DNA from: Camelus ferus
Taxonomy: Eukaryota
Length of the DNA: 64,000 nt
Direction of reading: 5' to 3'
NCBI RefSeq assembly: GCF_009834535.1
Contig: NC_045696.1
Span: 80,478,001-80,542,000 of the forward strand
In this document: one piece after another, positions 10,574 to 49,125 of the stretch
How positions within the stretch are numbered: position 1 is the first letter of the stretch
Layout of the letters: the number at the start of each line of letters is the position of its first letter
The notes under the pieces: model-generated
What the model was told of the DNA's origin: nothing
Database searches by the model: none
Seen by the model: only the letters and a program-made list of their open reading frames with translations
Translations under genes and position numbers: made by a program

Positions 10574-11342
10574 GGAGGGAGGGGGCAAAAAGAGAAAAAC
10601 AGGTGGTTAGTTAGGTATTTGGGGAGGAAATTGTAGAGGGAGGAGTTCCTTTCGTCCTAGGAGCCTAGGACAAAATCTCAAGTATATACAGATGTCCATG
10701 TTCCAGGCACCTTGAAGATTTTAAACCTTATCCAGGTATAGGAATGTAACTTTATCCTTTAACATTTTTTTTATTCTTCCAAAATACCTCTGAAATTACT
10801 ATTACTTTTTAAATTGCTATTGCTATTTCTACTTAAGAAATAATCCGATTCCAGAGAAATTAAAGTACAAACAGCCAAGTTCTCACATCATGTTGAGTAA
10901 CTCACCAAGCCCAGTCTTGCCACGTTACAGTGAAATGGGGCTCCCGTAACAGAGGGCAGACCCTACTTAAATTAACTAAGTCTCCTTTGATATTTTTACT
11001 AATTAAGTCCACAAATTTTTGTTTTTCCTAGGAAATTGTGGTACAGGTGGAAGGAAGTCTCTGAGGCAGCAGACTCTATGAAGGAATCACAATCAAATGG
11101 TCAAATGTGAAACTCACCTCAGCCGAGGGCAGCCTAGCCACCCTGCTACATTTCCCCCACTCTAGCTTTCCAGCACGCCAAGAGGCAAGATTCAGGAAGG
11201 GCCCTATGGTGCCACAAAAATGATAACAACTCTAGCATTATCCTAACTAAATTAATCCTGGAATAAGTTTCTGAAGCCTCAATATGTATTCTCTTGAAAT
11301 AATGATAATGCCCATAGTAGAGAAGTCCACCAAATGGTTTAC

Positions 11343-11419
11343 CTGTGAAATATAACCTGGAGGCACATGGATGGGAGGAATGGATCCATTGGGTGACATC
11401 ATGGGAACTTCAGCAGGTC
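11343..11419 (-). CDS. FNDC3B: Internal coding exon of fibronectin type III domain-containing protein 3B (equivalent to human exon 4, about residues 63-88)
   Basis: Minus strand reads cctttctctccttttttag|GA CCT GCT GAA GTT CCC ATG ATG TCA ... ATT TCA CAG|gtaaac. The exon is 77 nt with canonical AG/GT, phase 1 start and phase 0 end. The peptide (G)PAEVPMMSPNGSIPPIHVPPGYISQ matches the FNDC3B N-terminal region as I recall it, and differs from the paralogue FNDC3A (recalled as GPAQVPMMSPNGSVPPIYVPPGY). Confidence 0.96.
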
Positions 11420-23435: not shown

Positions 23436-23535
23436 NNNNNNNNNNNNNNNNNNNNNNNNNNNNNNNNNNNNNNNNNNNNNNNNNNNNNNNNNNNNNNNNN
23501 NNNNNNNNNNNNNNNNNNNNNNNNNNNNNNNNNNN
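23436..23535. other. Assembly gap (100 N)
   Basis: Exactly 100 N, a conventional placeholder for a gap of unknown length. Confidence 0.98.
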
Positions 23536-23675
<140 letters not shown>

Positions 23676-24878
23676 GGAGGAAGAGAACAGAGAGAAAGAC
23701 TGGGACCTAACATTTAACACAGTTAACATAAGACTACAGATTTAGAGAGAGGCAGAAGGACAGAAATGAGGAATGAACAATCATAAGCAGACATTTATTT
23801 ATTTGTGTTTTTCTTAATACTGAGACTCTAAATAATGAATTCTTTCAGATAAATTTCTGAGTTGAAGTTTTAAAGACACTGTTCTTTCCAATCTGTAATA
23901 AATTGCATTTGATATAGCCAAGCAGGATGAATAATTTATCTTGATCTCTGCAATTAAGCCCTTGTTCCTAAAGTAAGTGCACCAGAGGCTATAGACTCCT
24001 CACAGGAAAAATCTCCAAAATTAAGATGAGAACAGAAATCGTCATGCCCTGTAATTAGAGATCGAGGCAGTCAAAATAAAACAGGAGATAAGTTATCTAC
24101 AGAATCATTCCTCAGTGAATGTGAGTATACCAAGCAACAAAGGTGGATTACTGAATTGGCGTTAGCACTTACTAAACAGTCTTCTGTGAATTCGGTTAGT
24201 ATGAGTTGGTTTTCCAGAGCATGGTCACCAATTCTATCTCCATCTTCCCATGTAAACTTAAAACTGAATTTCCTATCCTGTGAAACTAAGAATCAATTCA
24301 CTACGTTGAGGAAAAATAGTAAGTCTGGCAATTTGTGTCACATATATCATCTTTAACCTGATTCCAAGACCATGGCAGACCATCAAACCATCAAACACTG
24401 CACACTTGGCACTAGGCCTGGAGGCTGTTTCTGGATCCTGCACACGGTACTCCAGTCAGCCACAATAAATTGGTTGAGAGTTGGCAGGAGAGTTGAAACT
24501 CACTTTCCTTGCTGCAAAATAGACGGTACTGTAAAGTTAGACAAGAATCTGAAGCCTCGATCCATCACCTCAATAGCCTGCTTAAGTTCTGAGAAACTCA
24601 GGCCTGCCAGCCTCTAGAATGGGATGAAGATGAGGCCAACAGTGACAATATTATCAGTTCTCATGGCATTAAAAGTGATGATTATTTGAGATTAAAAGTA
24701 AAATTTGCCCAGCATAAAGCAAATGTTTAATATACGTTAAGTTCTTCTAAGATACTCTTGCAGCCCACAGAATATGCCACAATATTGATATCAATGATAG
24801 TACATATACCAAATACTAACATAAAAAATGATTTTGTGAGTTTAATATTGAGAACAAGGACCAAGCTGAAAACAACTA

Positions 24879-26611: not shown

Positions 26612-26770
26612 GGGGAGGGTATAGCTCAAGTGGAAGAGTGCATGCTTAGCATGCATGAGGTCCTGGGTTCCATCCCCGGGACCGCCATTAAATAAATTAA
26701 CTAATTAACCTAATTACCTCCCACCCCAAAATAATTAAATTAAATTAAAATAAAAAACAAACAAACAAAA
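26612..26770 (+). mobile_element. Camelid tRNA-derived SINE (Vic-1-type), full length, 14-bp TSD
   Basis: ggggagggtatagctcaagtggaagagtgcatgcttagcatgcatgaggtcctgggttccatcccc (A-box tagctcaagtgg, B-box-like ggttccatcc) with an AT-rich tail. Flanked by taaaacaaaggcca at 26595-26608 and 26771-26784. Confidence 0.93.
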
Positions 26771-27139
26771 TAAAACAAAGGCCAGAAGGCAAAATGTGCA
26801 GAGTGTGTGCTCAGAATGGTTCATGGGCTTGAAATCTTTTCACTTTAGTCAAATTCAGCATCAGCACTCTTCGAAAAAGTGAGGGAAAAACTCTGTCTCA
26901 ATAGTACCACTTCTTAGCGTAACAATAAAAACGAAATTTTAATTATAACTCAATGTATATTTCTGCGGTTGAATTTTAGTTAATAATACAAATAAAGAAG
27001 TTGACTAAACATACTTGTAGTATGTACTCAGGCCAAGATTTATTGAAGTTGGTTTACGAATTGCAGAATTAATTGAAATAACCATGCCTGAAATTTTTAC
27101 TATCTCAATTATGCACTCTCTAGAACTGATCAATGATTC

Positions 27140-27260
27140 ATGTATTTAGCAATCATTCCTCCAACATTTGCTGAGTGCCCAAGTGCCAGGTATTGGCTTG
27201 AAAGGGCATAGAGGTGAACAAGACACCCAGCATAGCATCCCCACTCGCATGAAACTCACT
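27140..27260 (-). mobile_element. L2 3' end fragment
   Basis: aatcattcctccaacatttgctgagtgcccaagtgccaggtattgg...gaggtgaacaagacac. Confidence 0.6.
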
Positions 27261-27558
27261 TTTTCGGACTGGGCTGGTCAGAGTGACCCAACAGTCAGCA
27301 CCAAGGAAGTAACTTTGTTACACATGACTACTGCCCAGTGAACAAGCAGGGTCAAGTAATGTTTTCACCTAAAACAATCCCATTTATTTTTCAAATAAAT
27401 AAATTTTTAAAAAATAACAGATTTTAAGATGCTGTCTTAAAACATGCAATACAGCCATTTTTTAAAAAGGGAGTTCTATCCCCACTTTTAGATGGATGAA
27501 GTAGGAGAGAGGACAGAATAAGAGGAAAAAAACACTGAGATGGGAAAAATCTTCAACC

Positions 27559-27581
27559 TCAACCTTTCTTCATCACCTCAT
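27559..27581 (-). CDS. FNDC3B: Candidate alternative terminal exon of FNDC3B, coding part (D)EVMKKG-stop
   Basis: Minus strand reads ttctaac...cctccctgcctttgttgttgtcttttaatag|AT GAG GTG ATG AAG AAA GGT TGA GGT TGA AGATTTTTCCCATCTCAG. Read in phase 1 (the same phase as the constitutive exon) it gives DEVMKKG*, which resembles the recalled human short-isoform tail DEVVKRACD*. Minus-strand AATAAA signals lie at 27388-27383 and 27044-27039. Confidence 0.6.
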
Positions 27582-30009
27582 CTATTAAAAGACAACAACA
27601 AAGGCAGGGAGGTGCTAAATGAGGACCGTTAGAATCCTCGTTATTCTCACATCTATTTCATTTTCCAGCATAGGTTCTGTGAAATAGGAATAAAGACAGC
27701 ATAGTGCCAAGGCACTAGAAACCAGGAATCTGGGGAAATGGCATGTGCATTTTCCTTCTTGGTTAAGTTTATTCGGTTGGTCAAGCCTCTCAGACTGTGG
27801 GGGCCGGCAGTAAGTCTAGGGGTGTTTCTCTGGGCCATCCTCCATAAGTGTGTCCCACCTATAAATCTTGAAGTTCTTAACTGAATTTATAAAGCAAGCA
27901 TTTCAGATGCTTTTAGAAGTACTTTGCCACAATGCTCAAATTCCCAAATTTGGAGTTTTTTTTAACCAAATATTATCACAGAGGTGAGGAGAAAAAGCAT
28001 ATATAATCCCAAATTTTATTTAGACATCAAAAAGAAACAGATAATAATATATGAACTAATAATTTGCTTTTTCCAAGTTCCATAAATTAAAAAACTACAG
28101 TAGACAAAGCATCATAGAAAAAGTTCCATTGTTGGAAGAGGGAGAGTATTAAAAGTAATTGTAAGGATGTTTAATTCATGGAAATTCTTTAAGCTTCCCA
28201 ACTTTTGAAAGCCTTACTTCAGCTTTCAATACTCTTCCTCTTTTAGCCTCTCTCCTGAGAGGCTTGTAACATTTCCAGTCACTTTTTGTCAGTTATATTC
28301 ACTCTCCTCTTTATTTCCTGGTCTTTTAAAATCTTGGTCTCCAAGTAAAATAAAAGGTATGGTCTCCAAAAGCAGTGATAGCTCCCCAGAGCCGGCAATT
28401 CAGGGAGAATTCAATATACACTTATCGCATTGAATTTTTGAAAGAGAGGCAAAGAAGGCACAAAATCCACATTAATTAGTGCAGTATAATTACTTCCTTG
28501 TAATTAGAAAACACAGTGAATACATTAGACATATTATTTTTTTGTAAGGAACTAAATTACCAATACAAAGTTCACAGAATCTATCGGCCTGTTTTCTGGC
28601 AACAGTTGTTAAATTTTCCTACAACTCTGATAAGCATACTCTAAATAAAAGGATACAGAGTAAAACGACGTATTGCAAACAGAAGGAAATTATGTTTCGT
28701 CCATAAGTTTTTAAATCAAAGCATTCCTTTTCAAATCTAAGAAGATTACTTCGAAAAGAACTAACTCAATCTTAAAACTCTTGAAAACAGAGTAAGTGCA
28801 TTCTGTGGAAGAGCTGAGTATCTCAAGCTTTCTCAAAATAAGAACGAAAGGAATGAAAATAGAAATGCTCAGGTTTATGGCACAATGAATTCCTCAGACA
28901 CGAGGCCTTGCGTAAGGTTAAGTGTCTTCCTTGTCTCTCTGGATGGCCTGTCTCTAATCAATTTCCAGGCTATCACACTCATCAGTGGGTGTGGTGGAAG
29001 GAGACAATGAGCCAGAAAGAGGCCAGGACATTTTTCAAGTCTACCTGGTAGGAATAAATGGGAAATCCTTTCTCCAACCTTTTATAAATGAAAAGGTTAT
29101 GCCTCATGTGAAAGACATTATGAACCTGACGAGAACCTACTAGACAAGAACCAAACGATGGACGATGGAGCTGAGATGGCTCTGGTGCTAGATGAAAGTT
29201 CATGGCAACAGTCATTCATAAAAACACACAACCTCAAAATGCCCAATAGTAATGGCTGTTTCCTACACTCCTGAAAAAAAACTTTACACATAATTTTTCA
29301 GTGCTTGAACACCGGCTTCTAGACAGCCACAACATTCTTTCTTAATGTTTGAATTTTGTCTTTTTCTTCCCCTTGCTTCTGAATCTTTAAAAATTCATTT
29401 GTGGGCATTATCAAAAGGGATAAAACAGAAGACTTCTGCTAACTGGCACTTTTTAATGAAATGGATTTAAAACAGTATTTCCTACAGAAAAGGAAAGCTC
29501 CAGAAGAAAACTCCTCACAACCGCTATCTGAAAGGCTGGTATTGTAACTCGGGAGTAACCGCAATGCTGGCGCTCTCAGCATTTACCCAGCCTCCTTCTC
29601 ATGCACCTTCTGCCTGGTCACACTCCCCTGTGAAGTACACAAACAGTGAGCTCTTCCAGTTCGCAGGCTGACAAGCCATTTGTCAGTAAGTGTGAAACTT
29701 TATAGAAAGTCTGATTTTTTTTTTTTTTTTTTGCCTTTTCTTCATACTGTCCTGGGCTGTTGGGCAGAACCAACGACTAGAACAATATCTTACATTGTTA
29801 AAGTTTTGCCAGAAAGCACACTCCTTCCATTACTCTTACCAGTATTTTCCTCATAGCCATCACCACCTCTGGTGATGTTATATGTTTATTTCTTTGTTGT
29901 CTGTTTCCTCTCAACTCCATTTGTTCCAGTCTGCTGTCCTCTCAGCAGGCAGAACCACAAGCGGCAGGGTCAGTGCTCATTAGCACAGGCTGAATACAAG
30001 AACAGTGCA

Positions 30010-30860: not shown

Positions 30861-31006
30861 TTTTTATTTTTTAATTATTTTATTTATAATTGGGGGGAGG
30901 ATTAGGTTTTATTTATTTATTTATTTAATGGTAGTACTGGGGATTGAACCCACGAACTTGTGCATGCTGCGCATGCACTCTACTGCTGAGCTATACCATC
31001 CACGAG
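30861..31006 (-). mobile_element. Camelid tRNA-derived SINE (Vic-1-type), 10-bp TSD
   Basis: Reverse complement reads ggatggtatagctcagcagtagagtgcatgcgcagcatgcacaagttcgtgggttcaatccccagtactaccattaaataaata...aacctaatcctcccccc. Flanked by aaatcctagg at 30851-30860 and 31007-31016. Confidence 0.92.
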
Positions 31007-44380: not shown

Positions 44381-44682
44381 GAGCATTTGAGAGCCTTAGT
44401 TTCTCAATCTGTAAAATAGGCTAACCACTATTCCAACCTCACAAAGCAATTAGGATAATTAACAAGACAATGCAAATGGCACAAAGGACACTCATCTCTG
44501 TTCTACAAAAGATGCATTTGAGGTAGCAACAGAAAAGTAAATGACACCATTTTCAATCTCTTTTTATTACCTTCTCTGGGAAAGAGCTGAAGAGGAACAG
44601 AGATGAATGGATCTCCAAAATTCTAACCCATTTGAATGGGTATAGAAACAAATCACTGTTGGGACTATCAAGAGTTCTTATA

Positions 44683-48399: not shown

Positions 48400-49125
48400 T
48401 AAAATTGCATTATAACCCTCTCCCCCCTATAAAAACAGTAATAACCAAGTGTTGGTGAGGATGTGGAGAAACTGGGAAAGCTCATACATTGCCAGCAGGA
48501 GTGTAAAATGTTGCAACAACTTTGGAAAACAGTCTGGCAGTTCCTCAAAAAAAATATAGAGTTAACACATGACCTAGCAATTCCACTCCTAGGTATATAC
48601 CCAAGAGAAATAAAAACATATGTCCACACAAAAACTTGTACACAGATGTTCCTGACAGCATTATTAATAATAGCTAAAAAGTGGAAACAACTCAAATGTC
48701 CATCAGTTGATGAATGGATTAAAATGTGGTATGTCCATACAATGGAATATTTAATCTGGCAATAAAAGGAAATGGTGTACTGATACAAGCTACAAAATGG
48801 ATAAACCTTAAAAACTATGTTAAGTGAAAAAAGTTAATCATAAAAGACTACATATTATATAATTCCATTTATATAAAATGTCCATAATAAGGAACTCTAT
48901 AGAGATAGAAAATAGATTAGCAGTTGCCTAGGGCCGGGGTGTAGGGAAATTGGGGGTGACAGCTAATGGGTACAGGATCTTTCCAAGTGATGAAAATGTT
49001 CCAAAATTGATTGTGGTGATAGCTGCACAACTGTGAATACACTGAACCACTGAATTGTACACTTGACCTAGGTGAATTGTAAGGTATGTGAATTATACCT
49101 CAATAAAACTGTTATTATTTTTAAA
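48400..49125 (+). mobile_element. L1 (L1MB-like) ORF2 C-terminus plus 3'UTR
   Basis: ORF 48463-48765 (LWKTVWQFLKK.IEL..D.AIPLLGIYP...KTCTQMF..AL..IAKKWKQ.KCPS.DEWI.MWY.HTMEY) is the L1 ORF2 C-terminal segment. The 3' end reads gaattgtacacttg...gaattatacctcaataaaactgtt. Confidence 0.95.

Follow-up and report, generated by a model that had tools for sequence, protein, structure and literature searches.

A stretch of the minus strand within the FNDC3B gene of Camelus ferus is an ordinary orthologue of a known isoform, one made by intronic polyadenylation at a skipped terminal exon. Given a codon-by-codon match to the human tail and a similar exon length, we regard its orthology to the skipped terminal exon of human FNDC3B isoform 3 as very nearly certain. 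Use of the exon in Camelus ferus itself is likely, and we judge it somewhat probable that a minority of transcripts take it up, thereby diverting output from the full-length protein. An earlier note on the same DNA had called the exon hidden, which holds for the track of open reading frames, where it is missed, and not for the human form, which is already present in UniRef, PolyA_DB and PolyASite.

The window is the whole stretch of DNA that we analysed, 64,000 nt (64 kb) of AT-rich mammalian sequence. The frame of a 77-nt exon and the named protein matches to it identify FNDC3B, on the minus strand, as the host gene of the candidate exon, and two features fix its surroundings:

11343 to 11419, minus strand: next canonical FNDC3B coding exon, with the competing acceptor; 77 nt, phase 1, GPAEVPMM...PPGYISQ
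23436 to 23535, no strand: assembly gap of 100 N, between the candidate and the canonical exon

Read from 11419 to 11343, the 77-nt exon gives GPAEVPMMSPNGSIPPIHVPPGYISQ, is bounded by AG and GT and requires one base from the upstream exon. A protein search with its frame returned 526 matches, the named ones being mostly FNDC3B among the at least 120 listed, and in complete mammalian FNDC3B proteins the segment comes after residue 62. A scan of the 64-kb window with eight short motifs found no upstream FNDC3B coding exon, so the candidate lies in the intron between codon 62 and the 77-nt exon, that is, before the GPAEVPMM exon, on the strand of the gene and in phase 1. It stands 16.2 kb upstream of the canonical exon, a spacing that is a lower bound because the 100-N gap falls in between. 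The human exon presumably lies about 40 kb before its next exon, against 16 kb plus the gap here, a difference that needs the gap or lineage-specific insertions to reconcile. As a side observation, 20 of the 24 sequencing runs listed contain at least half of the words of 26900-27900, and five of the runs with these words are RNA on record (two studies, shares 0.86-0.95); the words include about 440 nt outside the exon, are uninformative on splicing and ends and were not counted as evidence.

All the motifs claimed by the earlier note are present on the minus strand. Those at the head of the exon are:

27628 to 27632, minus strand: CTAAC, branch-point-like but doubtful, with an AG at 27616-27615 between it and the acceptor
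27619 to 27623, minus strand: CTCAT, putative alternative branch point of the yUnAy type, about 38 nt before the exon
27587 to 27612, minus strand: polypyrimidine tract, 77% pyrimidine, rank 172 of 4321 AG sites
27582 to 27583, minus strand: weak 3' splice site AG, probable counterpart of the human acceptor at hg38 chr3:172186712
27559 to 27581, minus strand: coding stub (D)EVMKKG with the first TGA (27561-27559), unique best match to the human isoform-3 tail
27553 to 27555, minus strand: second TGA, at the codon of the human stop by ungapped codon alignment with P0211

After the AG the sequence runs AT GAG GTG ATG AAG AAA GGT TGA GGT TGA, which in phase 1 reads DEVMKKG*G*. The human short isoform with whose tail the earlier note aligned this segment does exist in the protein collection, as 'Isoform 3' (P0211, 71 aa, tail DEVVKRACD). 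We searched the shared N-terminus against proteins of 62-200 residues and obtained 97 matches. Among the 15 listed members of the top cluster (n = 20) were human 'Isoform 3' and 13 further short forms, from primates, carnivores and a peccary; a 356-residue fish protein, also among these 15, was left out. A squirrel short form stands in its own cluster, making 14 non-human short forms altogether among those listed.

To turn the 30 bases after the A of the candidate AG into the human tail plus stop takes a minimum of five base changes, and the next best site requires eight when all positions on both strands are considered (4372 minus-strand and 4478 plus-strand AG sites). Chance would give 0.002 such matches over the 3545 AG sites that precede the next exon, the scan having covered the part of the intron within the window. 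What exceeds chance is this match to the human tail, and not the signals around it. With a six-codon average as the statistic, the candidate was outscored at 1416, a position that lies downstream of the canonical exon; with the full tail-plus-stop statistic the candidate is unique.

As bare signals, the motifs of the candidate are not above chance. On a rough matrix its acceptor scores 0.5 bits and ranks 527 of 4321 minus-strand AG sites, and the acceptor of the real 77-nt exon scores 6.6 bits and ranks 24 among the same sites. On matrix score, pyrimidine content and AG-free zone taken together, 55 AG sites equal the candidate, with an AATAAA within 600 nt in 23 of them and two AATAAA in 2. 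The CTAAC proposed earlier as the branch point is doubtful in view of the intervening AG and the alternative CTCAT, and a CTRAY occurs 15-55 nt before 479 of the 4325 minus-strand AG sites in the window.

The human exon supplies a second measure of correspondence. Passages of PMC10960005 class an exon of human FNDC3B as a 'skipped' terminal exon, with an acceptor at hg38 chr3:172186712 taken from spliced reads and presence in 12 of 12 fetal marrow cell types; they also give a novel end for it 4.1 kb downstream. In the FNDC3B rows of PMC12548281, a 3'-seq peak is tied to PolyA_DB hg19 chr3:171905083 and PolyASite hg38 172187294, and the coordinates of the two sources put 583 nt between acceptor and annotated cleavage. 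The intronic site in the FNDC3B rows of PMC5928244 keeps 187 coding nt, or 62 codons and one base, a position from which the human exon at 172186712 probably encodes the isoform-3 tail.

The corresponding features at the 3' end here are:

27383 to 27388, minus strand: proximal AATAAA, exon nt 194, with U-rich sequence and UGUA upstream and a poor downstream element
27039 to 27044, minus strand: distal AATAAA, exon nt 538, apparent match, by position, to the intronic poly(A) site annotated in human
26984 to 27013, minus strand: U/GU-rich downstream element of the distal AATAAA; U rank 6 of 50, GU triplets rank 16 of 50
27016 to 27558, minus strand: predicted 3' UTR of the short transcript, from exon lengths of 559-566 nt against 583 nt in human

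The earlier note gave both hexamers GU/U-rich sequence downstream and looked for cleavage past either of them, but the two are not equal. Both are indeed there and the element beyond the distal one is fair, but that of the proximal one is weak: among minus-strand AATAAA, its U-rich upstream side ranks 2 of 50 and its downstream GU triplets rank 48 of 50. Only the distal signal thus combines AAUAAA with a U/GU-rich downstream element, and only it matches the human exon length. Cleavage at the CA dinucleotides at 27023 and 27016 would give an exon of 559 or 566 nt, by which the distal AATAAA appears to be the positional counterpart of the human site and the one at 27388 does not; the rows of PMC5928244 and PMC12548281 list no human poly(A) site at the proximal offset (nt 194). 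Of 4325 AG sites, 155 are followed by an AATAAA no more than 25 nt from where it would be expected, a chance of about 0.04. Internal priming is unlikely, since the longest run of A in the exon and just beyond it is 6.

Compared with human isoform 3 (P0211, EAW78472.1; hg19 chr3:171905083 / hg38 chr3:172187294), the stretch thus shares the gene, the phase-1 splice after codon 62, a codon-for-codon tail, a stop kept at the human position and an exon length within about 4%. It differs in its tail, DEVMKKG (7) instead of DEVVKRACD (9), in the extra AATAAA at exon nt 194, and in that use is documented in human and predicted here. Other searches added no further members. Two metagenome scans for orthologous mammalian DNA gave 0 matches to a degenerate exon-head pattern and 596 pattern matches, none confirmed, to a 63-residue frame of the UTR; a further protein search, directed at the tail, yielded 49 proteins, and no new cluster carrying the isoform-3 tail headed the list, the residues of the three new ids from this search not having been individually inspected.

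The product predicted by the earlier note stands as described, since the phase is correct and 62 + 7 gives 69 residues without FN3 domains or membrane anchor. FNDC3B has nine FN3 domains, and the stub would end before all of them, before the membrane anchor and also before the PPGY motif. It matched no Pfam family, and no confident fold was predicted for the stub or for the N-terminal 189 residues (pLDDT 55 and 41). All 13 orthologues compared share the first 62 residues with human without a single change, the squirrel being left out for an insertion, and each of the 13 differs at 1-4 of the next seven tail residues; the short forms are 69-72 residues long across annotated species. Divergence of 20-30% is the range used in the neutral model, in which the expected number of changes in 30 has means of 4.3-6.5, as with the five observed. 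The isoform-specific residues and stop show no purifying selection, and the suggestion that the signals matter more than the peptide agrees with a tail and stop that drift at a neutral-looking rate.

The ungapped codon alignment places the TGA at 27555-27553 at the human stop, which has been kept as the earlier note said. The TGA two codons earlier, taken there to be new, is probably old. Seven annotated tails fall short of the human one by a single residue, several non-simian ones among them dropping exactly that codon: loss of window codon 8 (TGA 27561-27559) fits best for four of the seven (squirrel monkey, mouse lemur, squirrel and a Laurasiatheria entry), the peccary ties codon 8 with codon 9 and two are uninformative. 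These fits come from protein annotations, with a margin of one base each. A Cys occupies the place of codon 8 in four apes and the owl monkey, and is next to last in the marmoset and Old World monkeys. From the dropped codon and the Cys of apes and most monkeys, the more likely account is an ancient early stop with read-through in simians, which turns the earlier order of events around. Projection-based gene builds swap in-frame stops for tiny introns, so the short-tail entries are best read as projections and are no proof of use. The cross-species short proteins are presumably UniRef entries of the kind projected from human; with the dropped codon suggesting edited-out stops, they indicate alignable DNA and not use.

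Use of the isoform is documented in human. In the FNDC3B rows of PMC5928244, use stands at 0.20 in plasma cells; the values for three myeloma groups are 0.22 (adjusted P 0.95), 0.08 (adjusted P 0.004) and 0.09 (adjusted P 0.026); full-length FNDC3B is higher in the two low-use groups (TPM of 124 and 188, against 96). The passages of the same paper present the loss of IpA isoforms in myeloma as a general trend and not a gene-specific one, and describe skipped terminal exons as typical of long 5' introns. According to the rows of PMC12548281, the site amounts to 2.8% of the last exon in A549 cells and to 14.7% after cisplatin (adjusted P 0.24), and falls to 0.22%, against 14.7%, in heavy polysomes (adjusted P 0.007). 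A short ORF alone would also give depletion from heavy polysomes. We found no paper devoted to the short FNDC3B isoform, although subscription papers and preprint supplements could hold more. The passages of a 2026 review only note two FNDC3B splice isoforms differing in length (PMC12907209), there is no FNDC3B row in the supplements of PMC13262950 and PMC6428223, and the passages of PMC13721586, PMC13235742, PMC13622307 and PMC2394776 have no bearing on the short isoform.

In the reading that we prefer, the donor that follows codon 62 and lies beyond the window would be joined, in a minority of Camelus ferus transcripts, to the weak AG at 27583. Cleavage and polyadenylation would then take place some 15-25 nt beyond the distal AATAAA, around 27023-27016. 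The weak acceptor and the poly(A) signal would thereby compete, within a very long 5' intron, with the strong acceptor downstream. The resulting short polyadenylated mRNA should be stable in principle, as no junction follows its stop, and would encode a product of about 69 residues. Its main effect would be to draw some of the FNDC3B output away from the full-length, ER-anchored protein, as a leak or an attenuator whose size may be set by the general balance of splicing and cleavage in the cell; the tail residues would be incidental.

The principal competitor to this reading is that the intron is silent, the DNA being homologous but spliced or cleaved to no appreciable extent in Camelus ferus, and real use being primate-specific. 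We consider this unlikely, though it is the strongest of the alternatives. It would account for the weak acceptor and for an exon head at neutral-level divergence. Among the matches listed there is also no transcript-assembly (Logan) protein with the isoform-3 tail, and no XP_ accession with it, 15 of the 20 members of the key cluster being listed. The rows of the mouse cleavage-site table in PMC11094166 that could be consulted give a single Fndc3b end, a non-intronic one, which counts mildly against wide use. On the other side, the stretch has kept the AG and the phase and also, at the human offset, an AATAAA whose downstream element is U-rich; each could persist by chance, but their joint retention is less likely without use.

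At the other extreme, and close to the conserved switch that the earlier note suggested, the exon could be a selected, regulated switch, one that placental mammals in general have retained for tuning FNDC3B in secretory and immune cells. Such a switch would act by lowering the ER anchor of TENT5C/FAM46C or through a soluble N-terminal decoy of 69-71 residues. The 20% use in plasma cells and its loss in two myeloma groups would fit (PMC5928244, FNDC3B rows), as would the 62 invariant shared residues and passages reporting that TENT5 in plasma cells is tethered to the ER by FNDC3A/B (PMC13291444), that an N-terminal deletion abolishes FAM83H binding and that a mutant without the TM acts opposite to full length (both PMC12126894). 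However, the IpA loss in myeloma is a global trend in the passages of PMC5928244, the tail and the stop position drift, the stub ends before PPGY with no Pfam family or confident fold, the passages of PMC12126894 and PMC13291444 do not map the binding regions to residues 1-62, and heavy polysomes contain hardly any of the isoform (14.7% vs 0.22%, rows of PMC12548281). A placental-wide selected attenuator that is raised in plasma cells and sets the amount of ER-anchored TENT5C/FAM46C poly(A) polymerase, possibly with a decoy, therefore seems improbable to us.

A further feature of the exon raises the question of its 3' boundary:

27254 to 27262, minus strand: strong-looking 5' splice site AAA/GTGAGT, GT at 27259-27258, matrix rank 55 of 3952 GT sites

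Joined to the candidate acceptor, this donor would yield a 322-nt cassette exon containing a stop, and hence a poison exon whose premature stop leads to nonsense-mediated decay. The donor scores slightly above the real one of the next exon at 11342 (rank 55 vs 68 of 3952), but 54 other GT sites in the window score equally well and the passages and rows of PMC10960005 and PMC12548281 treat the human exon as a terminal one that has an annotated cleavage site, so we hold this outcome to be very improbable.

The weakest alternative, which we regard as extremely improbable, is a chance or paralogous likeness, in which the head of the exon would descend from a widespread ancient repeat (a MIR-like core), now decayed, and would merely happen to resemble the human tail. 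Ten repeat-like copies picked by seed from the window agree, in their majority base, with the acceptor region at 12 of 13 positions, and the acceptor ranks 115 of 8752 on the repeat-copy matrix, but its flanks rank only 1995 of 8752, a weak repeat HMM built from the window has no match to the candidate, no other site, repeat copies included, comes under eight changes, and a repeat origin would in any case be compatible with orthology. The acceptor bears some likeness to MIR, an origin that these comparisons did not confirm. The view that MIRs exonize mainly in sense is contradicted by Table 3 of PMC2394776, where 33% are sense. The site at 44576, which reads EKVIKRD* behind a pyrimidine-rich acceptor and would favour a chance likeness, was rejected because it needs eight changes and lacks, over 1000 nt, any poly(A) hexamer past exon nt 8.

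Returning to the reading of a minority-use terminal exon, its architecture is that of the skipped-terminal-exon (5' IpA) isoforms described in passages of PMC5928244 and PMC10960005: a new acceptor in a long 5' intron, an in-frame stop, AAUAAA and a loss of about 95% of the coding region, known here from DNA sequence and there from RNA. It also resembles the miP-5'UTR-IPA isoforms of PHF20 and PRKAR1B (passages of PMC12548281) in that an IPA transcript carries a short ORF, and heavy polysomes are depleted of the human isoform. Those isoforms, however, end upstream of the annotated start and carry a separate small ORF, whereas the ORF of the FNDC3B short form consists of the initial 62 codons of the host protein itself. 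FNDC3B also undergoes alternative polyadenylation by tandem 3'-UTR shortening (PMC7293090, as cited in the passages of PMC13721586), an event that falls in the last exon, leaves the protein intact and increases expression; the short form, by contrast, removes nearly all of the coding region.

The immediate gain is one of annotation, as a terminal exon known in human has been placed in another mammal together with its likely poly(A) signal. The drift of the tail and stop implies that any function lies in the diverting of transcripts and not in the tail. An isoform that reaches 20% in plasma cells now appears only as a row in a supplementary table. If it is used here and in other orders, it would be an old, testable regulator of the FNDC3B-TENT5C secretory axis, and if the reading as a selected attenuator were true, its loss in myeloma would be functional and not a passenger of global IpA loss.

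The following features were noted in the window, which contains the candidate FNDC3B terminal exon, the counterpart of the human isoform 3 exon:

27259-27254, minus strand: near-consensus donor AAA/GTGAGT, between the proximal and distal AATAAA of the candidate exon
44576, minus strand: AG after a long pyrimidine tract, with the phase 1 translation EKVIKRD and a stop
23436-23699: assembly gap of 100 N beside a 40-copy AAGA microsatellite
26614-26758 and about 30900-31000: a SINE-like repeat, short and young, present as two copies

The candidate donor could end a 322-nt cassette exon containing the stop; alternatively, it could bind U1 and so damp the distal poly(A) signal. Across the whole window there are 112 copies of AATAAA on the plus strand and about half that number, 54, on the minus (transcribed) strand. 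Under an order-2 Markov model the expected counts are 81 and 44, respectively, and most of the strand asymmetry is therefore accounted for by base composition.

The site at 44576 gives the second-best match in the window to the human tail DEVVKRACD, with 8 changes (0.58 expected by chance), a likeness compatible with chance. On the minus strand, an AATAAA lies 8 nt inside the would-be exon.

Self-comparison of the window flagged the SINE-like copy at 26614-26758 and gave four self-matches in 48431-49113, and found no significant match for 27200-27135 (minus strand), which resembles a worn L2 3' end in sense orientation. The InPACT terminal-exon table gives an extended human exon of 4.1 kb (PMC10960005). 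If lengths are preserved, the end of such an exon would fall roughly at the gap and microsatellite.

Proteins continuing past the donor of the canonical GPAEVPMM exon into the next intron include P0017, P0047 and P0001-P0006 (matches from our FNDC3B protein searches), whose mammalian tails are alike (VNHL.DFSTH..H). Either gene calling ran through the donor in these cases, or 11342 is the site of a composite terminal exon. Two further matches, P0124 and P0228, from a river otter RefSeq entry and a rodent-like assembly, are short FNDC3B forms spliced after residue 62 to unrelated tails, which suggests that the long intron at this point may offer several minor exits.
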